A stretch of 64,000 nt of DNA. Source: Candidatus Bathyarchaeota archaeon (GTDB taxonomy: Archaea; Thermoproteota; Bathyarchaeia; Bathyarchaeales; Bathyarchaeaceae). The notes beneath the pieces were generated by a model. The model had not been told where the DNA came from, did not search any database, and saw only the letters and a list, made by a program, of their open reading frames with translations. Shown piece after piece: positions 5,800-44,786 of the stretch. The translations under genes were made by a program, and so were the position numbers. Position 1 is the stretch's first letter, and every line of letters starts with the position of its first letter. The DNA is taken from the NCBI GenBank assembly GCA_963697165.1, contig CAVOMX010000017.1:24343-88342 (forward strand), given 5' to 3'.

Positions 5800-6109
5800 T
5801 TTTTCACCGCCCCTATGTTCTGTTCCTGAGAAAGATTGACAAAATTGGAGTTTCTGTCCTCTCCCCCAGTGTGCTAATTTAGAAAATAAACTCATCTTAT
5901 GTGACATTTAAAGTTAACTAGATGATAGTTCTAGAAAACTCAATATAAATAACAACTTATGTTACAGGAGAATACGTCCTTTCCTTTTTACTTGTGTGTT
6001 TGGAGTTATGGAGAGGTGTTTTAGTTTCAGTTAACTCTCCACTTTTCCTGAATCCCAATGAACTCAACTAGTATATTCAGATTTTGTGATTGTAGTTTGG
6101 TGTTAAGTG

Positions 6110-6302
6110 TTGGGTTTCAGTGTTGTCTGTCATGGATGCGATGCTTTACTGTTTGAAGGAAGGGACATTGATTCCTCTTTACAAGCTTAGGAATAAGACT
6201 GACGGAAAATGTCCAAACTGCGGAAGGCGTTTGAGTCTCCGTCCCCTAAGCATAAACTTTCATAACAAGGAATTAACCACTTCACCATCAACTGAACCCT
6301 AA
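6110..6302 (+). CDS. Small zinc-ribbon protein (frameshift near 6168), paralog of 59762-59974
   Basis: Joined frames read MGFSVVCHGCDALLFEGRD/LIPLYKLRNKTDGKCPNCGRRLSLRPL. Confidence 0.75.
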
Positions 6303-6418
6303 CACTGCACTCTTTTTTTGCAAAGTTTCCTATGAGCTCTAATATCGTGAGTCGGTACGACTGAAGTACCAACATTCTTTGCAGTAGGTTACAAGGAAAC
6401 AGCAAATATTCGGTATTT

Positions 6419-6865
6419 TTAGCTGAAGAATTCTTTGACTGGAAGGAGTAACCCAACTATCCAGAGTATTACTAATATTATGGAACTGGGAAGGTAGAAT
6501 GCAGTTAAAACATTAGCATTAGTATAGACAAGAATCAATTGTCCCAAAAGAGCAACACCGAAAATGACTAATACCGCATACCAAGCCCATTTTTTTCCCC
6601 GTCTAAAAGGTAACAATGACATAAAGATTAAACTTAAACTAAGACCCAACATATTCACCGCATCAAAATGATATACAAGCGTAATTTTATCCATCAAATT
6701 AGAGTTGAAAGCACGAACTTCTGAAATTGTTAATCCAAACAACTCTTGGAATTCTGAGTCTGATGGAGCTAGGAATAAACTCTGTAAAGCGTATACGATA
6801 CCACCAATAGCAACAATGACCAGCAAAACAGATGCAACATTCAAAACTCTACTAAATTCAATCAC
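6419..6865 (-). CDS. Four-helix membrane protein
   Basis: Hydrophobic ORF with PFRRGKKWAWY motif. Confidence 0.7.
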   Translation of the reverse strand: MIEFSRVLNVASVLLVIVAIGGIVYALQSLFLAPSDSEFQELFGLTISEVRAFNSNLMDKITLVYHFDAVNMLGLSLSLIFMSLLPFRRGKKWAWYAVLVIFGVALLGQLILVYTNANVLTAFYLPSSIILVILWIVGLLLPVKEFFS

Positions 6866-6986
6866 CCCCTTTTAATTGAATATGAGCAGTAGTTCATTTC
6901 TTTTGTTTCTGCCTTTAAGACTTGTGTACCAACTTTGCCTGTGTAATAATTTACAGAAAGAATCTCTCAACTGCTTGAATCTATGA

Positions 6987-7058
6987 GTATATCCTTTTTG
7001 TGTGATGGATATACGAATTTTATTGGTATATCCTTTTAGTCGAAAGGGTATACGAATT
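6987..7058. promoter_or_regulatory. Tandem pair of 33-bp palindromic operator-like units
   Basis: GTATATCC-N12-GGATATACGAATT at 6987-7019 and GTATATCC-N12-GGGTATACGAATT at 7026-7058. Confidence 0.5.
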
Positions 7059-7166
7059 CCCTAATTCCTTATTGTATTCTTATTATATTGATTTGATACT
7101 GTTTTTACAGACCAAATTCTTACTGAATCATGCCTGATTCCTATCCATTTTCATTTTTCTGGTGCA

Positions 7167-7209
7167 AATGCCCTTGTCTCGTCAAATCAAATAATGTGAC
7201 AAGGGCATT
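7167..7209. repeat. Perfect 12-bp inverted repeat
   Basis: AATGCCCTTGTC ... GACAAGGGCATT. Confidence 0.7.
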
Positions 7210-7250
7210 CAACCCATTTCTTGGATGATAAAACAGGCGTGATTTTTTTT

Positions 7251-7276
7251 GCTTAAAATTTAACCCCCACACAAAA
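7251..7276 (-). repeat. Repeat family A copy (reverse orientation)
   Basis: Reverse strand TTTTGTGTGGGGGTTAAATTTTAAGC. Confidence 0.65.
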
Positions 7277-7350
7277 TGCATAAACAAAGAAAAGAGGTAG
7301 AATATGTGATGTGGAAAAAAGAGAGAAAGGTTTTGGTATGAATTTTTTTG

Positions 7351-8307
7351 TTATGTCTTTTTTGTTCGATAACGTTTGAATCCTACATATCCTATTAGGG
7401 TAACAAACATGCTAAGGGTAGCCATTATTGTGCCTAGTGGAAGCTCTGGAACAACGAAAATGGGACATGGCATTGTACACTCGTTATTTGCTTCGTCGAT
7501 TTCAACTATTTCAGCTGACGAGTCTGCCCAAGCCTTTATGTTGTATACGTTCAATGCAATTCCTGTGGTGTTCCAGGTAAAGGTTACGATTCTAGATTCT
7601 CCTGGAGCCAAGGATTCTACATTTATGGTGCCAATTTCTATGCTGTCGTAGTAGCAGCTAAGGTCAAAAGACTCGGTGTAATTGCCATTATTTCGAACAG
7701 TGACATCAATATCAACCAAGTCCCCTGGCAGCGCCTCATTATCACAAACAGTTTGGGAAACTGCTTCAACATCATGCACCCATTCTGGATCTTCGGTGAA
7801 TGTGGCGGTTACAGTCTTGTTGCTATCCATAAGGAGGAACTCAGGATTAGCAGAGCCACTGAGATCACCGCTCCAACCACTGAACGTCCAACCAGCAGCT
7901 GGAGTAGCCGTTAACTGTACAATTGATCCAGCAGCATAAGGTGAACTGCCATTGACGGCAACAGATCCGCTTCCAACAATATTCACCGTCAAACAATACT
8001 CTGGAATCTCTGTGAAGGTGGCGGTTACAGTCTTGTTGCTATCCATAAGGAGGAACTCAGGATTAGCAGAGCCACTGAGATCACCGCTCCAACCACTGAA
8101 CGTCCAACCAGCAGCTGGAGTAGCCGTTAACTGTACAACTGATCCAGCAGCATAAGGTGAACTGCCATTGACGGCAACAGATCCGCTTCCAACAATATTC
8201 ACCGACAAACTATACTCAGGACTCTGAGCAAACACAAAGTTTGATATTCCTAAAGGTACTGTTGTAACTAACAGAAAAGCAATTAAAAAGAAAGCAGATT
8301 TCTTCAA
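7351..8307 (-). CDS. Cell-surface protein: signal peptide, two InlB B-repeat-like domains, CARDB domain, PEF-CTERM-like anchor
   Basis: Duplicated YxLxVNIVGSGSV...ATPAAGWTFSGWSGD...TVTATF; CARDB-like VTVRNNG...EIDEANN; C-terminal VVPELPLG + TM helix + KRYRTKK. Confidence 0.85.
   Translation of the reverse strand: MKKSAFFLIAFLLVTTVPLGISNFVFAQSPEYSLSVNIVGSGSVAVNGSSPYAAGSVVQLTATPAAGWTFSGWSGDLSGSANPEFLLMDSNKTVTATFTEIPEYCLTVNIVGSGSVAVNGSSPYAAGSIVQLTATPAAGWTFSGWSGDLSGSANPEFLLMDSNKTVTATFTEDPEWVHDVEAVSQTVCDNEALPGDLVDIDVTVRNNGNYTESFDLSCYYDSIEIGTINVESLAPGESRIVTFTWNTTGIALNVYNIKAWADSSAEIVEIDEANNECTMPCPIFVVPELPLGTIMATLSMFVTLIGYVGFKRYRTKKT
7796..8221. repeat. Near-perfect intragenic tandem duplication, period 216 bp
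   Basis: 7796-8005 vs 8012-8221 differ at only a few positions. Confidence 0.95.
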
Positions 8308-8430
8308 GGAGTCTCCCCTTACAAGTTATAGGTGTGTGTATAAATAAAAGCTTAATTGGTATAATTCTCTAGAAAAACTAGACTGATTTTCTATATATCA
8401 ATTTATGATTGAAAACCATAAAAGCAAAAA

Positions 8431-8460
8431 TGTTTGGGTTTAGGCTTAAATTTTAAGCCC
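8431..8460 (+). repeat. Repeat family A copy
   Basis: TGTTTGGGTTTAGGCTTAAATTTTAAGCCC. Confidence 0.85.
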
Positions 8461-8546
8461 ATCCTTAAGCAACAATATGGGCTACAGCAGTTTATGTCAT
8501 GGTACAACATTAGTTTCTTAAAGGACTAAAATACAATACAATTGAT

Positions 8547-9014
8547 ATGGCAACTTTAGTTAGAGAACAGATTCTTTCCCAAATCATGAAGTGGGTGGTT
8601 AATTCGGGATTAGACGTTGAATCAATTTCTAACGAGAAACATGATTTTGCGATAACTATGTACGAGAATAGGAACCTGCCACAACTGCAAATAATTCACC
8701 CAAAAGCAGATACCGCATACGTTCTGGTTGTAGGTCTAGTTAGCATCCCTGAAAGTGACCGCAAAAAACTGAAGGAATTAAAACGTGAACAGTTTGATGA
8801 ATTAATTTGGGATAACAAAATGAGATTACTAACAATGGATGTTGATTTTACAGTATGGGGTTCTGAGCAGGATCCGGATTCTTGGGAAGTTCAAAAGCGT
8901 GTCTTCTTAGACGAAACTAACACAAACCACTTTCATGAAGCATGTCATAAAGTCAAGAACGCAATTATAAGCATTATCTGGTCATACAAACGAGAATTAG
9001 CAACAACCGCATAG
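8547..9014 (+). CDS. DUF2299-like archaeal hypothetical protein
   Basis: 155 aa; resembles archaeal DUF2299 proteins (IHPK...FDELIWD...LL). Confidence 0.55.
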   Translation: MATLVREQILSQIMKWVVNSGLDVESISNEKHDFAITMYENRNLPQLQIIHPKADTAYVLVVGLVSIPESDRKKLKELKREQFDELIWDNKMRLLTMDVDFTVWGSEQDPDSWEVQKRVFLDETNTNHFHEACHKVKNAIISIIWSYKRELATTA

Positions 9015-29635: not shown

Positions 29636-29644
29636 ACCCAACCC

Positions 29645-29728
29645 AATCATATTATGAGACTAATAGCAGTTGATTGTTGAAAACAGCCTTTTTTCAGGAA
29701 AACCACTCACAGCAACAAAAAAGCTGTC
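29645..29728 (-). repeat. Repeat family B copy
   Basis: Reverse complement aligns with 39956-40040 and 54007-54055. Confidence 0.85.
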
Positions 29729-29803: not shown

Positions 29804-30684
29804 TTGAAAATGGGAATCATGACCAGAGACCAAAAAGGCTGGTGTTCCACACAGCTACGGAAAGCAATGGAAAAACAAAACATAACCCCAATCTGTTTCG
29901 GTTACCGCCCAATAATAGGACGCGTAAACTACACCCCTGAAGCTTCAGTAAACAAAATTAATCTTTCCAAAGACATAGATGCAATGATTACCCGTCCCAT
30001 TGGACGGGGCTCCCTTGAAGAAATCATCTTCAGAATGAACCTTCTCCATAGACTAGAACGACTAGGACTACTAATCATCAATCCACCACATAGCCATCGA
30101 ACGATCAGTAGACAAATACTGCTCACTAACAATCTTACACGAAAACGGCTTACCTGTCCCACGCACAGCCGTAACAGAAAGCCACGACGAAGCACTAGAA
30201 TGCTTCCACGAACTAGGTGGAGACGTCGTAGTAAAACCCCTCTTCGGATCAAGAGGAATAGGCGCTACCAGAATCAACGACCCCGACATCGCAGCAAGAG
30301 TCTTCAGAACAATATCATTCTACCACGGCGTCCTCTACCTGCAAGAATTCATTCCTCACGGAGGCTCAGACATCCGCGCTTTCGTAATAGGTAGACCGAG
30401 TCATAGCCTCCATGCGCCGAGTATCAGAAAACTGGAAAACCAACGTGAGCCTCGGAGCAAAACCTGTACCCTTAAATCTGCCCAAAGAACTGGAAAACCT
30501 TGCAGTTAAAGCAGCCAAACTCATAGGCTGCAAAATTACGGGCGTAGACATCATCGAAGGACCAAACGGACCCGTAATTATAGAATTAAACAGCCAACCA
30601 GGATGGAGAGGACTTCAGTCGGTTACAAAAATAAACATTGCCGACGAAATCATCAACTACATCCTCTCTGAACTCAAATCATAG
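29804..30684 (+). CDS. RimK-family ATP-grasp glutamate ligase (MptN/CofF-like), frameshifted
   Basis: Joined frames: DKY, VVKPLFGSRG, LQEFI, DIR, WKTNVSLGA, GVDIIE, ELNSQPGW. Confidence 0.88.
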
Positions 30685-30699
30685 GAGAAAAAAGATGGT

Positions 30700-31499
30700 A
30701 TGCGGGAGATACAAGTTTCCCGAGTAAACGTTTCAGACCAGACTGTCGAACAACGGACAGACTACGTAGCAGAAGAGACAGCCCTACATATATTCCTCAA
30801 CAAACACCACTACGGAACAATCCTCTGTTCCCCTAACCAACTAAAAGAAATGGTGATTGGACATCTTCTCTCGGAAGGACTCCTGCAATCAACAAGCGAA
30901 ATAGAAGATTTACAACTAAAAAAAGACGGAAAATGCCTACTAACACTCAAACCAAACATAGACGTAGAGACACGAATCTCAACATCACAACGCTTCTCAC
31001 GCCTAATAGTTTCCGCCTGTGGCTCCCCAGACTATCGACCTCTCTCCGAAGTCATCGACAACCTCCCAAAACTGAAATGACTCCAACAGTAGACGCAGAA
31101 GTCATTTCACAGTCAGTAAAAAGCCTAAACACTATTGCTGAGAACTTCAGAAAAACAGGCGGAGTTCATGTTGCAGCACTCTATACCAAAGATGGAAAAC
31201 TGGAGGCTCTGGCTGAAGATGTGGGACGCCACAACGCCGTCGACAAAGTCATCGGCTCAGGAGCAATAAAAAACATTGACTTCAAAAACATTTTTCTCGC
31301 CTTAAGCGGGCGTCTCACCGGAGACATAGTTTTGAAAGCTGCACGAATGAAAATTCCAATTATCGCTTCATTGTCAGCCGCAATCAGTTCTGGCTTAGAA
31401 GCAGCACAACTAACAAGATGTTACCCTAATCGGTTTCGTCAGAGGCAAACGAATGAACGTTTACACAAGTCCAGAACGAATAATCTTTGGCTCCCGTAA
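30700..31499 (+). CDS. fdhD: Formate dehydrogenase accessory sulfurtransferase, frameshifted
   Basis: SACG, TGGVHVAAL, EDVGRHNAVDKVIG, SGR. Confidence 0.92.
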
Positions 31500-34641: not shown

Positions 34642-35364
34642 ATGACCACCAAAACAGACGTCCTGATATCCATACTAAAAAATACAAACAGTGGTCCCGC
34701 TGTAAAAGAAATTATTGCCCAAGAAGCCAACATTCCGGTTCACATTACAAATGGCATTCTGAATGAGCTTCGTGAAATTGGACTTATCGAATGTGAAAAC
34801 GAACTAATCGAAGTATCTTCGAACCAACGAGTCAAACTTGCCATTCACGCAATCAACCAAGGAACTGATATTGAAAGAGTCTGCGAAGTTCTTGAATGGA
34901 TAGAGTTTGAAAATTTTGCAGCCACAGCCTTTGAAAAAAACAACTTCAATGTTAAACGACGATTCCGATTCAAAGCAGCACAAAGAAGATGGGAAATCGA
35001 TGTCCTCGCGTATAGTGAACCAATTGTTGTTTGCGTAGATTGCAAACGTTGGCGGCGTGGTTGGGGAAATTCAGCAATAACAAGAGTTGCTGCAGCACAG
35101 GCACAAAGAACTGAAGTGTTAGCAAAGAATCTTCAGGATATTCAACGAAAAATAGGTTTGGCTGATTGGAAACAAGCAACTCTTTTTCCCGCAATCTTGT
35201 CGCTGTTTCCGGGTCCAGTAAAAGTCTACAACAAAGTGCCTGTTGTTCCTATTTTGCAGCTTCAAAACTTCGTGGATGAGTTCCAAGGACACATTACGGA
35301 ATTAGCCCACTTTAGGGCGACTTTAGGAGCCAAACTATCTTATTACCTCGACAGGGATCAATGA
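34642..35364 (+). CDS. HTH plus PD-(D/E)XK restriction-endonuclease-like protein
   Basis: WIEFE, EIDVLA, VDCK motifs. Confidence 0.75.
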   Translation: MTTKTDVLISILKNTNSGPAVKEIIAQEANIPVHITNGILNELREIGLIECENELIEVSSNQRVKLAIHAINQGTDIERVCEVLEWIEFENFAATAFEKNNFNVKRRFRFKAAQRRWEIDVLAYSEPIVVCVDCKRWRRGWGNSAITRVAAAQAQRTEVLAKNLQDIQRKIGLADWKQATLFPAILSLFPGPVKVYNKVPVVPILQLQNFVDEFQGHITELAHFRATLGAKLSYYLDRDQ

Positions 35365-35619: not shown

Positions 35620-36115
35620 AAGTTTCCGATAGGGTTCGTTTGCGAGAAGAAGGAGATCATTAGCTAAAGCTCGAGCAAATGTAACTCTGGCGTTACCCTC
35701 CACTTAGTTGAACAGATAAGTATTGATTCAATGCTCCAAACAAATCAGCTTGAGCAGCTTTTCTGAGCGGTCTTTTTGTTTTTTCTCTTTTCCAACCAAG
35801 CTAACTCTATAACAAAGACGATGTTTTTGACTGCTGTTAATGTCGAAATTGGGTTGTAGGATTGAAAAACAAATCCGATGTACGTTAAGCGGAACGTTCC
35901 CAAAAAGTTTTCGTTATATGTTCAAAGGTCAAAGTAAAAAACAACAATCTGTACACTTGTTGGTTTATCCAAGGCCCCCATCAGATTAAGAAGAGTTGTC
36001 TTTCCTAGGCCAGAACGACCATTTACAAAAATGAATTCGCTGATTCAACCGTAAGGTCTAAGTTCTTTACGGGTTCAATAACCACTGCATCAATTCGAAT
36101 TGCATTAACAAAGCA
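35620..36115 (-). pseudogene. Decayed ABC transporter ATP-binding gene (LolD-like)
   Basis: Reverse-strand fragments VNGRSGLGKTTLLNLMGALDKPT, IGFVFQSYN and QLSGG...ARALANDLLLLANEP with stops and frameshifts. Confidence 0.75.
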
Positions 36116-36333
36116 AAAACTACAACAACTTTCTATCTCATCATCTGTCGGCGTGTTTGGATCTGAAATGGTGAATGTCCAATGAGGTTACACTTCCGTT
36201 TACCTTCACATAACAAGTGATTGTTTAGGCTTTGAAAGCATTGTAAACCCTCATTTAATGAGGGGCTATGTTTGCTGATCGCTTCGACTGATAAAATGAT
36301 ATTTAAGTGAAAAATGTGAAGAATCGCTGGAAA

Positions 36334-36367
36334 TTGTTGATGCTTTTGTATCCACACGTTGCTAAGG
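36334..36367 (+). repeat. Repeat family C copy (TTGTTGATGCTTTTGTATCC)
   Basis: 20-bp core identical to the copies at 37861-37899 (reverse) and 41254-41288. Confidence 0.9.
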
Positions 36368-36782
36368 AATATTTCTTAAGTATCCCAAAGATGCTTTGAA
36401 GTGATATGTCCTGATTTTTGCTTTAAATTATGGGTGAACACTCACATGTTTTAGGTTACAAGGCCTACCCTTTTTGTGTAAAAAACATGAGTGTTTATTG
36501 TTGGCTCTGGAACATTTCAACGTTTTTGGAAGTGATACATATGGCGTGATCTGTCGCTAATCACGCTAGTATTTGGGTTGACTCTATTGTTGTCTTTGAC
36601 TTTTTTTCCTACAGCTTTGCTATCTAACAGTTTGACGAAACTGTTACATCAACTTTGTTTTAACACTAAAATGTTTATTTAAGTTTTTTCCACTATGGAT
36701 ATTGACAATTTCGGATTCCAGAAAACTGATGCAAAAAAAGACCCAGTAAATTGATACCAAAAAGGGGCTTTCTTTGAATAAC

Positions 36783-37479
36783 TTAGAACCTTTTCTTCAG
36801 TAATTTGGGGAAGTATCTTCGCCAGTCCAAATGTGCATACCTGGACAAGGAAGACCCAACACCAACCATGCTGCGTAGGGTCCAGCCGCCATAAACAGAC
36901 AGATCAAAACCCGTGAAGCCGAAAGTCTCAATTAATTCTGTTGCTCGCAAGTGACGCAGAGCGTGAGTTCTAAACGGTTTATTGTGTGCCTTAACGGGTT
37001 TGGGTTTGGGGTCCTCCGGGTCGTACTGGCTATATTTTTCTATTGGATAACTCAGTCCAGAGAAAGTCTCCTTTGCGTAGTCCCAAGCCTTTTGTCTAGT
37101 GAACGGAAAGACTTTGTCGTTTCCCTGCTCCAGATAATAATTGTAAAGCTGTTCCGTCCATGGTTCAAACTTTTTTTCAAGGGGCAATGCAATCTTTCTT
37201 ATTTTTCCGTCACGTTTCGCGGTTCTAACTGTGAAGATTGCGGCTTCGCTTTTGATGTCTCCAAGTTCAAAGGTCTCGAGTTTAACGTCTTGTCCAGTTG
37301 GACCGCGAGCCACTGTTTGATTGTGTGACTATATCGTAGCGGTTTGTTGTTCCAATTATTTCTGAAGCCCTTGCACAAAAGAGGTAGGCGGCCATTAAGC
37401 AGAACTTTGCTTCTTTTTTTGTTGCTGTTTCTATTCTTTTTCGTACTGTTTCCACTTCAGGTAACGTCAGGTCATCCAT
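36783..37479 (-). CDS. Short tyrosine recombinase (catalytic domain only), frameshift near 37320
   Basis: ARASEII (R), TAKR (K), HALRH, GGWT (W), SRYAHL (Y). Confidence 0.85.
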
Positions 37480-37746
37480 CTTTGTTCGTCGCTCAAGGTG
37501 TTTATTGATGTTAGTCTATTTAAGATTGACAGTTGGCGAGAACTGTTAATCGAGTTATTGGATAAATGAGGCTCCCGCGTCGATCCTTAGGGCACATAGT
37601 TAGCACTGGTGATGCAGATTTTAGTCCATAATACATGATTCACCAACATCACCAAATGGTCTAAAATTATTGTTCACAGGGGGCAAAAGTGGTTAGTTTT
37701 GTCTACGTTCTTCACTACATATAGCACCACTCTCAAAATCAAAGGC

Positions 37747-38479
37747 TCAAAAATCCGTTCTTTTGTGACACCAAGTCGAAGAAGCAGTAAAGCAAAAACG
37801 TTGGTGACACACAAAAGCGAGCAGATCAACAGGGTTACGGTAGTTATATGCTTTAATTTCTCTCAGTAACGTGGATACAAAAGCATCAACAAAACTCCCG
37901 CTAGGCACTGATGATTTCCGAAAAACCATAAGATAGTGATACTTGAGCTCATGTGCCTTCAAAACTGTTAAACCCTGCTTTTCAAAGAGACGACTCGTTT
38001 GTTCTTTAGAAACCCTGACGGATACAGGGGGTCCAAAGCCAGTTTTCTCTTTCTTGAAATCAATTATAGCTACTTGTCCGTCTGGTTTGAGTACCCTTCG
38101 TATCTCGTTGATTATCTTCTCTGCGTCGTGGAATTCGTGAAGCGTGTTTACTGACAGCAGCAAGTCTACACTTTCGTTTTGGAGCGGAATCTCATTTTCT
38201 TTTGAGCGCAAGGTTTCAATGTTCAATATTTTTTGTGTTTGAATCTTCTCTTCAAGAAACTCTAACATTTCCTTTTGAACATCAATGCCGTATACTTTCT
38301 TGACCTTACGAGAAATTGGAACCGTAAAGTATCCGCTTCCACAACCTAAGTCAGCCACAACATAGGATGGCTTAAGCTCCAGCAATTCCCATTATTTCTT
38401 CGGGATTCTGCCAAGTCTTCCTATCTTCAGACTCTAAAGTATCGATGTGTTTCGGGTTAAAAACCTGCGATTCCTTCAT
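37747..38479 (-). CDS. Class I SAM-dependent methyltransferase (N-terminal frameshift)
   Basis: ADLGCGSG, GIDVQ, RVLKPDG, GPP; upstream frame MKESQVFNPKHIDTLESEDRKTWQNP. Confidence 0.88.
37861..37899 (-). repeat. Repeat family C copy (inverted)
   Basis: Reverse strand GGGAGTTTTGTTGATGCTTTTGTATCCACGTTACTGAGA. Confidence 0.9.
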
Positions 38480-38655
38480 TTCTGGTTCCTCCTTTTCTTG
38501 ACAAACGTTGAACACCCATCAACAATGATGTAAGTGGTTACATTTTAATTAACTGATTCTGGGCATAGGACACCCAATCCAACACGTGCTTTCTCTTCTC
38601 GTTTTCGAAAAGATAATATCTTTTTCTACTACGATTACTATTAGATGACTTCGAT

Positions 38656-39834
38656 ATGCCGACTAATCTTCCTCCAGAGGCTAAAAAGAAGTATCAAGAA
38701 GCGACTCTTGCTAGGCGACCTGAGGAAAAAATCAAGAAACTGCAAGAGTTCATGAGCATGTTTCCTAAGCATAAAGGTACAGAAACTCTTCGTGCACAAG
38801 TTAAAACAAAGATTTCGCGGCTAAAACAGGAGATCGAAGATAAAAAGCAAAAGAGAACGGGCGTAGCAACTGGACCCAAAGTTTTTGTAGAAAAAGAGGG
38901 GGATGCTCAAATCGTTATTTTGGGACCAACCAATGTTGGACGTAGTAGTTTATTGTCTACTCTAACTAACTCAAAAGTGGCGATTTGGAATTATCCATAT
39001 ACCACAACGGAGCTGACGCCAGGAATGTTTAATTATAAAGATTTACAGTTGCAGATGGTTGAAGCACCAGCACTTATGAATGGTTCTTCAGAGGGGGGTT
39101 CTTGGGGTTTGCAAACTTTGACTTCTGCCAGAAACGCTGATGGTCTTGTTTTAATGGTGGATTTGTCGCAGGATCCCGTTGAACAGTTCTCGCTTATCAT
39201 TAAAGAGTTAGAAAAAGCAAAACTTCTTACGAAAAAGCCCAAAGCGCGTATAGAAATTGAGAAGAAGCATATGGGCGCCAAATTAAAGTTCATTGTTTTG
39301 GGGAAATTGATTGATTGTTCAGTTAAGGATTTGACGCAGCTTCTTAAAAGCTACGGAATACGTGATGCCACGGTTAAGATTCGGGGCGAAGCTACACTAG
39401 ATGATGTTGAAGAAGCAATTTTTGAGGGCAAAGTGTATAGACCTGCCATAATTTTAGCCAACAAGGCAGACCATCCGAAGGCTGCTGAAAAATTAGAACA
39501 ACTCAAAAAGGTTGTAGGCAATAAAATGAAGATTATTGCCGTGTCATGTAAAACAAAGGTGGGGATGGAGAATCTTGGGGCTGAACTGTTTGGTATGCTT
39601 GATGTAATGCGTGTCTACACTAAGGAACCAAATAAGAAAGATTCTTCAAGGCGACCTTTCACTATCAGAAAAGGCTCAACCGTCTTTGATTTGGCTAAAA
39701 GAATTCACAGCGACTTCTACGAGCAGTTTACGTACGCGAAAGTATGGTCAAAGAGGTTACGTTTTAGTCCACAAAAGGTAGGTGGAACTTTTACTCTTGA
39801 AGACGGCGACACAGTGGAACTTCACATAAATTAG
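38656..39834 (+). CDS. DRG/OBG-family GTPase with TGS domain
   Basis: MPTNLP, PKHKGTE, GPTNVGRSS, YPYTT, NKAD, C-terminal TGS. Confidence 0.93.
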   Translation: MPTNLPPEAKKKYQEATLARRPEEKIKKLQEFMSMFPKHKGTETLRAQVKTKISRLKQEIEDKKQKRTGVATGPKVFVEKEGDAQIVILGPTNVGRSSLLSTLTNSKVAIWNYPYTTTELTPGMFNYKDLQLQMVEAPALMNGSSEGGSWGLQTLTSARNADGLVLMVDLSQDPVEQFSLIIKELEKAKLLTKKPKARIEIEKKHMGAKLKFIVLGKLIDCSVKDLTQLLKSYGIRDATVKIRGEATLDDVEEAIFEGKVYRPAIILANKADHPKAAEKLEQLKKVVGNKMKIIAVSCKTKVGMENLGAELFGMLDVMRVYTKEPNKKDSSRRPFTIRKGSTVFDLAKRIHSDFYEQFTYAKVWSKRLRFSPQKVGGTFTLEDGDTVELHIN

Positions 39835-39955: not shown

Positions 39956-40040
39956 AAACAGCATTTTGTTGTTGCTTAGGTTTTCCAGAAAAAGGTTGTT
40001 TTCAACAATCTTCTGTTATTAGTCTCCTAATATAATTGAT
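39956..40040 (+). repeat. Repeat family B copy
   Basis: ...GGTTTTCCAGAAAAAGGTTGTTTTCAACAATCTTCTGTTATTAGTCTCCTAATATAATTG. Confidence 0.85.
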
Positions 40041-40752
40041 TGCTTAGTTTTGTTTGCATTTCTTCCTTGTTTTTGTTGTTGGAACAAGACGAAGATGGAC
40101 GAAGGTGCGTTTTATTTAACAGTATATTGTAAAACAGTCTATGTTTTGGTTGGCTGTCTTTGACATCTTTTCTGTATTTGGTGCTCTGAGAGACAGATGA
40201 AAGCATGGCAAAGGTCAACGTTTTTGTTTGATTTCAATCGATTCGATTTGTGGCTGCAGATAACTTGATTTTCATCTCTTGGAAAATTTGACACGATCAC
40301 CTTTTCTTGGTTAAGCTTTAGCGTTAGTGTGTTTCGGTGTTTTTCGTTTGTTTTATCAGTTATTTCAAGTTCAATTCCGTTAAAAAACGGAGAAAGGAGA
40401 GGCAAAAACTTGAAAAAAGCTAAAATAACAAGTTAACTGTCACAGATTTACATTATATCTGTAAATATTGTTGTGTTTCGTCATGTTTCGTTTAATCTAA
40501 CTTCTGGTGAAACGTCTTTTTGGAACTGGCTGAATAGTCAAAATGGGTATTGAATCCAGTGAATGACACAACCATGTGGTATCAAAGGCTAAAACTGGGT
40601 GTTCTTTACAAAAAACGTCCAAGATAATCAGTTTTGGTTGTTTTCTGAAGCTAAATTCTGTGAAGAATTGCTTCCTTTTTTGATGCTATTATAAGATTCG
40701 TTATTAAACGTGAATTCTTAATGTGAATGTATACTTAATCTGTGGTTGTTGT

Positions 40753-41157
40753 TTATTCGCCGAGGACCTGCATGATGATTGTTCTTTGTCTGGGGTATAC
40801 GTCGGTTTCCACGAAAACTAGGGACTGCCAAGTGCCAAAAATTGCTTGTCCATCTATTACGGGCAGGGTTTTGTCTGGACTCAGAAGCATTGATCTCAGA
40901 TGTGAGTGCGCATTTGATGGGTGCCTATAGCCGCCATTTTTGGGAATTATTTTTTCGAGAAAATCTTTAACGTCCATGTCTAAGCTTGGTTCATGTTCAG
41001 TTAATATGATTACTCCTGTAGCGTGGGGTGCAAAAATGTGAACCAGCCCATTTTTGATTCTAGACTTTCTTACAACATCATGAACCTTTTCGGTCAAGTC
41101 CTTGAATTCTATTTCTCCCTTGGTCAAAAAAACTATTCTATCATTAAAAACATTCAT
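40753..41157 (-). CDS. YjbQ/UPF0047 family protein
   Basis: PHAT, NAHSHLRS, GTWQ motifs. Confidence 0.92.
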   Translation of the reverse strand: MNVFNDRIVFLTKGEIEFKDLTEKVHDVVRKSRIKNGLVHIFAPHATGVIILTEHEPSLDMDVKDFLEKIIPKNGGYRHPSNAHSHLRSMLLSPDKTLPVIDGQAIFGTWQSLVFVETDVYPRQRTIIMQVLGE

Positions 41158-41253: not shown

Positions 41254-41288
41254 GGGAGTTTGTTGATGCTTTTGTATCCGCTTCGCTA
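41254..41288 (+). repeat. Repeat family C copy
   Basis: GGGAGTTTGTTGATGCTTTTGTATCCGCTTCGCTA. Confidence 0.9.
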
Positions 41289-41994: not shown

Positions 41995-42003
41995 GTGAAG
42001 TGT

Positions 42004-43016
42004 ATGAAGAAATATTACGGAATAATCCTCATCGCAATTATAATCACTGGAATTGGTATAGCCGCATGGGCACTAAATGCACCACAAGACAAAGCGATAC
42101 TGATAGTTTCCACAACAACTAGTTTCTATGAAACAGGGCTTCTAGATGTACTCGACGCCAAATTTGAAGAAAAATATCCTAGTATCAACGTTACTTTTAT
42201 CTCACAAGGAACGGGCTTAGCAATAGAAACAGCAAAACGATGGTGATGCTGACATGATTCTTGTTCATGACGCTGCCCGAGAGAAAGCGTTTCTTGAAGA
42301 GGGTTACGGAGTTAACAGAAAAATCGTGGCTTACAACTTCTTCGTTATTGTTGGTCCAGAAGATGACCCTGCTAACATACAAGGACTTGACCCTGTTGAA
42401 GCTCTGTTAACAATAAAAGCTGCTGGCGAAGCAGGTGATGCAGTATGGGTCTCCAGAGGAGACGACTCAGGTACACATGCAATGGAGAAAAGACTCTGGA
42501 TTGCTGGTGGCGAAGATGTAGCAGAACTAAGAGAAGACAGACTGGTACTTAGAACGAGGAGCAGGCATGACTGCGACATTGTCATTAGCGAACGAAAAGA
42601 GAGCATACACAATATGTGATATGGGAAGCTATCTAAATAACTACGTTTCTGGAAACATTGACTTGGTAATTTTGGTTGAAGCTGGACAGGCCACATTAAA
42701 TGTTTACAGTGCAATAGCATGTGACCCACAGAATTCCGGTTTGTCTCATGTAAAATTTGATGAGGCAATGAAGTTCATCGATTTCCTTGTGTCAGACGAA
42801 GTTCAAGAGATATTCGCTGATTTTGGCGTTGACACATTTAATCAAGCATTGTTTAATCCAGCAGTTAAACTTCTTACAGAAAACACTGACCCTACAGTAG
42901 CAGGTTGGATTAAAGACGCCGCATTTATAGATGGAACAGAGTGCCCAGCAAATAAACGTTACAATGCGGGTAACCTATCGTTCGTAAATTCTGTTATTAT
43001 CCCTTTACTAAAATGA
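42004..43016 (+). CDS. tupA: Tungstate ABC transporter substrate-binding protein, frameshifted
   Basis: STTTS..TGLLD, GTG.A, VHD, SRGDDSGTH motifs. Confidence 0.9.
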
Positions 43017-43027
43017 GCGATTCTTAA

Positions 43028-43712
43028 GTGACAAGTCAAATAGTTGATGGAATAATCAAAGCATTCCAACTCATTTTTTCTCTTGACCCAGAAATTTACG
43101 GCATAGTTTTTCGATCACTATATGTATCTGGATTGGCAGTAGCTATGGCTACACTTTGGAGCATCCCAATCGCAGCAATATTGGGTTTGAAAAATTTTCG
43201 AGGAAGACGTTTCTGAAGGGTTCGTTTAACGCTTTTATTGGATTTCCAACAGTTGTACTTGGTCTGATACTGTATTTGCTCTTTACACGGCAGGACCATT
43301 GGGATGTTTGGGCTTTTGTATGGTAATTACGGTAAGCTATCGGACAAGCAATTCTAATGACGCCATAATTGTTACGTTTCAACAAGCAGCTATTGAATCC
43401 ATTGACTTTGATCTTAGAGATTTATCTCGGACACTTGGGTCAACCGAAATTCAGGCATCAATTCGCATTCTGCGAGAGGCTTTAGGGGCGTGGCACTTAG
43501 CGATTTTAGCAGGATTCAACAGAGATTTGCAGAGTTAGGTGTTGCTATGATGATAGGGGGTAACGCACAGGATATACTCGAGTTTTAACTACGACAATCG
43601 CGTTGGAAGTTAAACAAAGCGAAATCGAGTTCAGTATTGCCTTAGGTGTCATATTGATTCTTATAGTTTTTACCGTGAGCTTAGTTCTCAATTACTATTG
43701 AGGAGGCGATAA
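43028..43712 (+). CDS. tupB: Tungstate ABC transporter permease, multiply frameshifted
   Basis: FRGR, GFPTVVLGL, GPLG, ELGVAMMIGG, TRVLTTTIALE fragments. Confidence 0.8.
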
Positions 43713-43715
43713 GAC

Positions 43716-44786
43716 ATGTCTACAATTATTGAATTATGTAATGTCTGGAAAAGCTTCGAAAAAATAAACGCACTTCAAGACACCAATTTACATATCTACG
43801 TGGCAAAATTACAACGTTGCTGGGCCAAGTGGATCAGGAAAAACAACACTTTTACGAATAGTTGCAGGGTTAGATAGCCCAACCAAGGAAATGTGTTTTA
43901 TGAACAATACTAAAATTACAGCTGATGAATAAACGTGCTATCCTTCGACAAAAGGCCACGATGGTATTTCAAAAGTCTGTGTTTTTTGATACTACTGTCT
44001 TCAATAACATCGCGTATGGGTTAAAACTTAATGAAGAACTCTCAAAAGAGGAAATTAACCAAAAAATTAGTGAAGCCCTAGCAATGGTTAGACTTGAAGG
44101 TTTTGAAAATCGGTCGCAGCAAAAAAATTGTCCGGTGGAGAACAACAAAGAGTATCTCTAGCTCGAGCAATAGTTCTAGACCGAGAGATTCTACTTTTAG
44201 ATGAACCAACCGTCAACCTTGACCCAAAAAACGTTTCAATAATTGAGGAAACAATCCGTCGGATAACCCAAGAAAGGAAAAAAACTATTGTCTTGGCGAC
44301 ACATAACATGTTTCAGGCCGAGTCCGTTAGCCAAAACATAGCATTACTTCTTGAGGGAACTGTAAAGCAGACAGGAACAAAAAATGAAATCTTTGGAAAA
44401 TCAAACATGTATTTGACAAGTTTTGCACGTCTAGAAAACGTTTTTTCAGGCAACATCAAAAACAAGCAAAGACGGCACTTCACTGATAGAAATCAATCAA
44501 AGTCTAAAAATCGAAGCATCATTCAATCGGTCCGGAAAAGTTACTGTTCATGTGAGACCGGAAGATATTCTGGTTTCAACTGAACCCATAAAATCAAGTG
44601 CACGAAACGTATTCAGAGGACAAATTGTTGGAATCACAGATTTGGGATCCACAGCCAAACTGACTGTTGATGCAGGAAAGAAGTTTAGTGTTCAAATCAC
44701 AAAGAAAGTCATTGACTGAAATGAAACTAAATGTCGGCTCCGAAATCTTTCTCACGTTCAAAGCATCATCCGTTCTAGCCATTTGA
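43716..44786 (+). CDS. tupC: Tungstate ABC transporter ATP-binding protein with TOBE domain, multiply frameshifted
   Basis: SGSGKTT, LSGGEQQR, LLDEPT, SARN and FKAS fragments. Confidence 0.82.

Follow-up and report, generated by a model that had tools for sequence, protein, structure and literature searches.

The window, a stretch of 64,000 nucleotides from an archaeal genome of 1.99 Mb that is 81% complete, contains a small tyrosine recombinase gene (type A) enclosed by an inverted pair of 22-bp repeats. A third copy of the repeat, two 11-6-11 palindromes and conserved non-coding DNA lie in or near this segment. The features of the locus are as follows, in window coordinates.

34642–35364, plus strand: winged-helix and Mrr-like nuclease gene, a neighbour that several families retain at the locus
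36334–36355, plus strand: site S1, a 22-bp repeat with a near-invariant 18-bp core, GTTGATGCTTTTGTATCC, at 36336–36353
36423–36621: conserved non-coding stretch that accompanies the type A gene and is missing from type B relatives
36622–36649: 3' palindrome, ATCTAACAGTT-TGACGA-AACTGTTACAT, with 10/11 arm matches
36783–37479, minus strand: type A tyrosine recombinase, catalytic domain only, 231 aa in relatives; catalytic codons R 37371, K 37217, H 36965, R 36956, W 36884 and Y 36839
37517–37524, minus strand: conserved TATA-like box upstream of the recombinase, a putative promoter element
37524–37551: 5' palindrome, GATTGACAGTT-GGCGAG-AACTGTTAATC, with 10/11 arm matches and the same arms as the 3' palindrome
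37596–37765: fixed-spacing non-coding core, single-copy in the genome and conserved across several families of the order
37871–37892, minus strand: site S2, an exact inverted copy of S1
37900–38480, minus strand: class I methyltransferase with a frameshift near 38384 in this assembly
38656–39834, plus strand: DRG/Obg-type GTPase with a TGS domain, a fixed neighbour
40753–41157, minus strand: YjbQ/UPF0047, a fixed neighbour and orientation marker
41260–41281, plus strand: site S3, flanked by the YjbQ start and the ModE-like stop, with one mismatch

The original prediction placed an inverted pair of repeats around the recombinase and a third copy nearby, and this arrangement holds. S2 is the exact reverse complement of the 22-mer at S1, S3 carries it with a single mismatch, and the GGGAG flank described for the second and third copies lies beside both. 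With 3 mismatches allowed, the window has three occurrences of the 22-mer, against 0 in 100 shuffles. A genome-wide count of the 20-mer recovered the three window copies and raised the total from 3 to 5, since a search at up to 3 mismatches of the 1.99-Mb genome also found copies on other contigs at C11:185310 (exact) and C25:56409 (one mismatch). The repeat is rare, conserved and linked to small recombinases. At two or fewer mismatches it is present in all 24 genomes of the genus and in 34 of 41 relatives, with one control hit; a laxer pattern finds it in 36/37 genomes of the family, although with that pattern controls also ring 0–3 times per strand. Exact matches to the 18-bp core in public genomes come mostly from entries titled Bathyarchaeia, with isolated single matches among bacteria. 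The repeat is kept where the type A gene is missing, the type A gene co-occurs with a different site, and the 18-bp repeat is older than the type A gene. Genes flanking a site start 24–350 bp from it with no fixed TATA position, and a role for the site as a fixed-position promoter operator was rejected because the distances to gene starts are scattered. The start of a short peptide inside the site was likewise rejected, the downstream frames being not conserved when judged by eye.

The recombinase is, as had been proposed, a protein of about 230 aa without an N-terminal domain: it begins at the catalytic domain and retains codons for R37, K88, H172, R175, W199 and Y214. In the window the gene is split over two frames by one extra base at 37328–37329. 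Ten relatives encode an intact 231-aa protein with all six catalytic residues, 82–87% identical to the first, and contigs from related strains lack the extra base. Many single-base frameshifts also interrupt housekeeping genes of the window at 29804–31499 and 41995–44583 (RimK-like, FdhD-like and tungstate or molybdate ABC genes, named partly by resemblance), which suggests an indel-prone assembly, so the break in the type A gene is probably an assembly error. Over 45 pairs, a mean pN of 0.078 and pS of 0.68 indicate purifying selection on the gene. Each genome carries it once, at a fixed place, and homologues were found in 9/251 genomes at class level with a single type A protein as the query. 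The upstream box at 37517–37524 is one we take to be TATA-like, and the single RNA run examined gave no evidence of expression.

A structure model of the type A protein built from 72 sequences has a pLDDT of 91; a first model, from 12 near-identical rows, had a pLDDT of 38 and was discarded. The top Foldseek matches of the model, all weak, are catalytic domains of integrases, Xer, Flp and topoisomerase IB, with no PDB match at E ≤ 0.001 and one match in BFVD. A profile of the wider family matches the archaeal Xer structure 4a8e best among PDB entries (E 5.6e-12) and also XerD, XerH and Cre, while a PDB search with the narrow alignment returned 0 matches. The small recombinase scores under the cut-off of Pfam PF00589, and the intact type A protein has no NCBIfam match. 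The protein has both the R-K-H-R-H/W-Y catalytic residues and the catalytic-domain fold of the tyrosine recombinase superfamily.

Both 11-6-11 palindromes and the conserved non-coding core had been overlooked in the original prediction. The 1.99-Mb genome contains the palindrome pattern ACAGTT-N6-AACTGT exactly twice, with both copies flanking the type A gene, about 135 bp past its stop and 45 bp before its start, 0.9 kb apart. Requiring only 10/11 arm matches gives 33 places genome-wide, with both type A flanks among them. The two copies differ in character. The 3' palindrome has the spacer TGACGA in 19/21 loci and no gene start nearby to regulate, and is a candidate dif-like crossover site. 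The 5' palindrome has a variable spacer and abuts the TATA-like box, and may be an autoregulatory operator or a second core site.

The locus is present in 16 stretches of the genus (20 stretches were examined), all with the same order and orientation. Four of the 16 lack the type A gene and keep the three sites, with 275–308 bp between S1 and S2; this shorter stretch and the DNA from the type A promoter to S2 are homologous, and an unrelated small recombinase, type B, lies just outside the site pair. More generally, the 18-bp inverted pair and a 270–330-bp fixed-spacing core are retained in relatives, whose small recombinases are unrelated. The central part of the segment is gap-poor, about 150 bp long, and consists of short motifs at fixed spacing. 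A structured RNA in the core was rejected: the 13 predicted pairs all form between the two repeats and 0 are compensatory, so no conserved RNA structure was detected there, and Rfam and tRNA scans of the window found nothing.

The 51 distinct small recombinases near sites form 9 groups under 50% identity that share only R, E, R and Y invariantly, which makes at least 9 lineages at the same 18-mers, with enzymes 16–22% identical among them. A tree of the type B proteins left 16/27 inner branches open, and no inversion count was drawn from it. Small-recombinase matches were found in 21/25 genomes of the family and 46/121 of the order. Among the best 30 loci of a protein-first search, those of families f1 and f11 mostly carry sites beside the gene; the same search also returned recombinases without adjacent sites (L444, L445, L447, L448, L459, L460 and L178). 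Three C-like genes are located apart from the sites, and in six genomes (G025, G299, G040 and three of family f6) the core is present with one or two sites but without a small recombinase beside it. The module is missing from four further genomes (G009, G019, G010 and G002), where searches for the Mrr-like and YjbQ genes also came up empty, so the region is probably unassembled. In G288 a gap lies at the expected place of the module.

Most small-recombinase lineages at the 18-mers have their own palindrome. The type B palindrome, TTGCGCAAAA-N6-TTTTACGCAA, and the type D palindrome, GTAACATTA-N6-TAATGTTAC, take the same position as that of type A, and L325 and L292 have perfect 11-6-11 sites. 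An 11-6-11 palindrome of at least 9/11 matches was found in 28/40 non-A upstream regions versus 4/250 upstream regions of neighbouring genes. Type A rows reach this level in 7/26 cases because the conserved part is 8 bp per arm; 21 of the 23 close type A rows yield the same palindrome, 38–47 bp before the start. Spacers of 4 and 8 bp also score, and those of 5 and 7 bp do not, making 6 bp the best fit rather than the sole fit. In whole genomes, the type A palindrome is present in 3/3 type A genomes, always at the locus alone, and in 0/2 type B genomes. The type B palindrome is at the locus in 3/3 type B genomes, with one extra match at 1 mismatch away from the locus in G020, and in 0/2 type A genomes. 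Gene type and palindrome type are therefore strictly paired in the genomes tested, and each small recombinase would appear to bind its own palindrome and not the shared 18-mer.

We examined the chromosomal position of the locus in G005, a single contig of 2,152,572 bases with no gap in the sampled stretches, taken as circular; 100-N gaps join the pieces of five other single-contig genomes, which were therefore unusable for position. Inverted motifs at 114,767 and 115,340, which we take to be ORB-like, lie upstream of cdc6-1 (likewise on contig C24 of G000), and an origin near 115 kb puts the opposite point of the chromosome at 1,191 kb. The locus lies at 1,203–1,208 kb, with an exact palindrome at 1,207,452, about 15 kb from that point. 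The T/A skew at fourfold third positions (44 stretches sampled, 42 scored) is positive in 17/19 stretches between the origin and 1,197 kb and negative in 19/23 of the others, and its change is best placed at 1,178 kb, with 1,165–1,233 kb nearly as good. In G020:C2 there is a weak sign change at the locus (6/8 positive, then 3/3 negative), the skew of G112 and of the window's own contig is uninformative, and GTTG and GTTC skews are noisy. Overall, the locus likely lies at the replication terminus, the position coming from one genome, G005. A replication origin at the locus was rejected, with the ORB-like motifs upstream of cdc6-1 elsewhere and the skew polarity of the terminus type.

The available parts of the sources describe archaeal dif as an 11-6-11 site in the terminus region, mostly 122–144 degrees from oriC (PMC5357621), flanked by inverted repeats in Thermococcales (PMC2958812), and xerS as adjoining difSL (PMC5357621). 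It has been proposed there that archaea without xerA recruited another tyrosine recombinase (PMC2958812). The XerA model NF040815 scored over its cut-off in 0/61 genomes of the order and in 4/14 controls. The best scores of full-length integrases were 183 and 181 of 220 bits, and these enzymes could do dimer resolution instead.

The locus most likely works as a dimer resolution module of the XerS/difSL type at the terminus, with a single enzyme, while falling outside the XerA family; we give this predicted activity a probability of roughly one in two. Both window palindromes have the 11-6-11 inverted-repeat form of Xer/dif sites and, as in XerS-type systems, lie beside the recombinase gene. 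A full-length two-domain protein scoring as XerA is replaced by one of 231 aa, and the single site per chromosome of Xer/dif systems is matched by type B, with one site at the locus, and departed from by type A, with two. Against this reading stand the terminus position seen in one genome, the two palindromes, the missing N-terminal domain and the patchy range outside the family, and a palindrome beside a promoter also looks like a plain operator.

Beyond the anatomy, we infer the steps of the mechanism as follows. A small recombinase would have been recruited from a mobile element and captured with its palindrome at the terminus, and a type A cartridge would later have replaced a type B cartridge, or the reverse. 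The enzyme would cut its own adjacent 11-6-11 palindrome, and in a chromosome dimer the sister copies of the 3' palindrome, with its invariant spacer, would pair and undergo exchange. The 5' palindrome, which overlies the promoter, could mediate autoregulation by repression, and its different spacer would prevent the gene from excising itself. The 18-mers and core would be an older and more widely conserved element rather than a routine substrate of the type A enzyme; they may be bound by a host protein with a role in shaping or timing the synapse, and would recombine only rarely. More tentatively, the locus might be a terminus platform on which polar 18-bp sites and the core are bound by a conserved host protein as a stand-in for FtsK-KOPS, with resolvase-plus-dif cartridges swapped at the 18-mers.

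As described in the available text of PMC5357621, XerS/difSL of streptococci and lactococci and XerH/difH resemble the locus in having one tyrosine recombinase beside its own palindromic site and in replacing the usual Xer system, and the locus shares its likely terminus position with them. They differ in that XerS has 356 aa, compared with about 190–230 aa and no N-terminal domain for the recombinases of the locus, and in that the central region of the XerS/difSL type is 11 bp rather than 6 bp (PMC5357621). Unlike XerS/difSL, the locus hosts several unrelated cartridges between or beside invariant 18-bp inverted sites and a fixed-spacing core. The archaeal XerA/dif system, in the parts of PMC2958812 and PMC8371274 available, shares with the locus an 11-6-11 dyad, a single enzyme, flanking inverted repeats and a position, likely for the locus, in the terminus region. 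Unlike XerA, the type A protein falls under the family cut-off and has no NCBIfam match, and the arms at the locus differ from those of P. abyssi dif as given in the available text (PMC2958812), with two palindromes for type A.

It is doubtful that the small recombinases instead act on the 18-mers, as a slow rearrangement or cassette system of a pdif-like or loosely integron-like kind, with the palindromes serving only as autoregulatory operators. In the pdif modules of Acinetobacter plasmids, sites of alternating orientation bound gene blocks and inversions are rare. The sites of the locus also alternate in orientation around gene blocks, unlike pdif modules in being chromosomal and archaeal, with a putative acting enzyme, and variable genes often end 8–30 bp short of a site. 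In line with the inversion idea of the original prediction, other lineages of the Bathyarchaeia show the opposite orientation of the core within its inverted pair. Among 97 distinct cores across the order, 53 are forward, 16 reversed and 28 unlabelled relative to their flanks; as the labelling rule mislabels L037 and L376 is ambiguous, 14–16 of the 69 labelled cores are reversed. The flanks of L004 and L037 are swapped reciprocally, and in both loci the inner sequence goes with the core as far as the sites, placing the breakpoints at or near the 18-mers. The outer flanks of paired sites are more alike than those of shuffled pairs (4.94 of 12 bp versus 4.15±0.19 for 78 site pairs; 6.29 versus 5.18±0.41 for 21 site pairs, with runs of up to 15 bp), which suggests occasional exchange, although the shuffle ignores kinship among loci. 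Such a system would need enzymes that are 16–22% identical to use one invariant common site. Identical cores are found in only 44/78 convergent site pairs, with partners often differing in the central bases, and the site pair persists without an adjacent small recombinase.

The invertible switch or shufflon of the original prediction, in the form of an active fimS-like system with a strong bias towards one state, seems unlikely. The fimS element is a segment of about 300 bp between inverted repeats beside the short tyrosine recombinase FimB or FimE. The inverted repeats of the locus, its segment of about 300 bp and its adjacent recombinase of about 200 aa match these sizes, both core orientations occur across the order, and genes point away from both ends. 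Orientation among close relatives is uniform, contrary to such a switch: 0/25 distinct type A sequences are inverted relative to the outer flanks (the 25 include that of the window, and two are halves of one genome), and all 52 pairs of cores at least 80% identical agree in orientation, with discordance found only below 80%. These pairs are kin rather than independent, and assemblies show the majority state only. As the core is inverted between distant and never between close lineages, the 18-mers probably recombine rarely, and we read the inversions as rare, lineage-fixed recombination rather than phase variation. Sequencing runs gave a weak test, with no strand-changing joint in 8 runs, in which S2 was thinly covered (among 22 candidate runs none matched half of the sequence words, and the 8 examined consist of contigs from related strains). 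Further points against a switch are that the core consensus showed no conserved TATA box or conserved outward promoter, there is no fixed TATA position at the flanking genes, the targets would be housekeeping genes, and the repeats outlast the recombinase. The two outcomes that had been foreseen for inversion fare no better. A flip of the methyltransferase-GTPase-YjbQ block finds no support at S3, which joins YjbQ to ModE in 31/32 loci with 1 unlabelled. A change to the 3' end of the methyltransferase, the swap of alternative ends that defines a shufflon, is an artefact: among 23 scored loci (25 examined, 2 unscored) the reading frame passes through S2 in one, that of this assembly, stops inside S2 in another and stops 10–369 bp before it in 21. 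The methyltransferase is missing from 3 relatives.

A further reading takes the 18-mers and core as binding sites of a terminus replication or segregation protein, with the recombinases as self-regulating passengers or as nicking or decatenating helpers, and we consider it improbable. It would account for the wider range of the site and core compared with the recombinases, for the leading-strand placement of orientable scattered copies and for the Hjc-like and Mrr-like nuclease genes as frequent neighbours, and by eye the site, read on its reverse strand, is similar to the 3' portion of the lineage's ORB-like motif at about 10/13 bases. It fits poorly with the retention of all six catalytic residues under apparent purifying selection and with a 3' palindrome of invariant spacer that has no gene start to regulate, and several of the scattered copies fall within coding sequence, possibly by chance. 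Finally, a small mobile element bounded by inverted repeats, the alternative first offered, is very improbable: related genomes do contain homologues at 26–58% identity at other places, in part within provirus-like regions, and Atlas neighbours include virus-rich clusters as a lead, yet the type A gene shows one copy per genome, fixed synteny and the low pN given above, the repeats stay where it is replaced, and phage records and viral contigs held no relative of it, with 7 single 18-mer matches lacking core or recombinase.

A literature search, with subscription journals mostly outside its coverage, found no published description of the locus, and the available main text of PMC10477458 contains no occurrence of recombinase, integrase or Xer. 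No equivalent directionality system has been recognised for archaea according to the available part of PMC8371274, and dimer resolution in archaea without XerA and archaeal Xer direction without FtsK are both left open in the available text of PMC2958812 and PMC8371274. For in vitro testing, the locus provides named enzymes, substrates of 28 bp and candidate accessory sites. If enzymes of about 200 aa without an N-terminal domain do recombine distinct 28-bp palindromes, they would be very small and probably orthogonal recombinases.

Several smaller observations concern the sites and their surroundings. Scattered 18-mers were mapped in G005:C1 (301273, 393702, 400366, 1171318 and 1903229), G009:C13 (101586 and 362987), G020:C5 (71925) and G000 (C11:185310 and C25:56409). 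All 10 orientable copies are on the inferred leading strand, those of G000 by contig-wide skew, and 3 of the scattered copies fall inside coding sequence. Beside lone 18-mers at G000 C25:56250–57041, L192, L196 and L201, a similar small gene set ends 8–20 bp before the site or enters it; its chromosomal neighbours differ in several genomes, as in a cassette. In L152, two direct site copies 2.5 kb apart (6100–8647) surround two genes and share 15 identical inner-flank bases, resembling an integration scar. S1 of L148, L153, L154, L293 and L304 has its four central bases changed to AAAA or AAAC with both arms kept, so that homology-dependent exchange with S2 would be blocked. At 37873–37881, the reverse strand of the 18-mer matches 8/9 bases of one arm of P. 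abyssi dif and leaves the other arm unmatched, a comparison made post hoc.

To the left of S1, the window at about 35780–36240 holds a broken remnant of an ABC-type ATPase gene that is intact in relatives. Outside the genus of the window, the site pair often has a gene for an Hjc-like resolvase (PF01870, under the NCBIfam cut-off) no more than about 2.5 kb away (L001, L159, L300, L474, L491, L492 and L493). A dispersed non-coding repeat of about 50–85 bp, at 39961–40045 and 29644–29720, has 35 blastn hits genome-wide and no Rfam match, and is possibly a regulator site or a MITE remnant.
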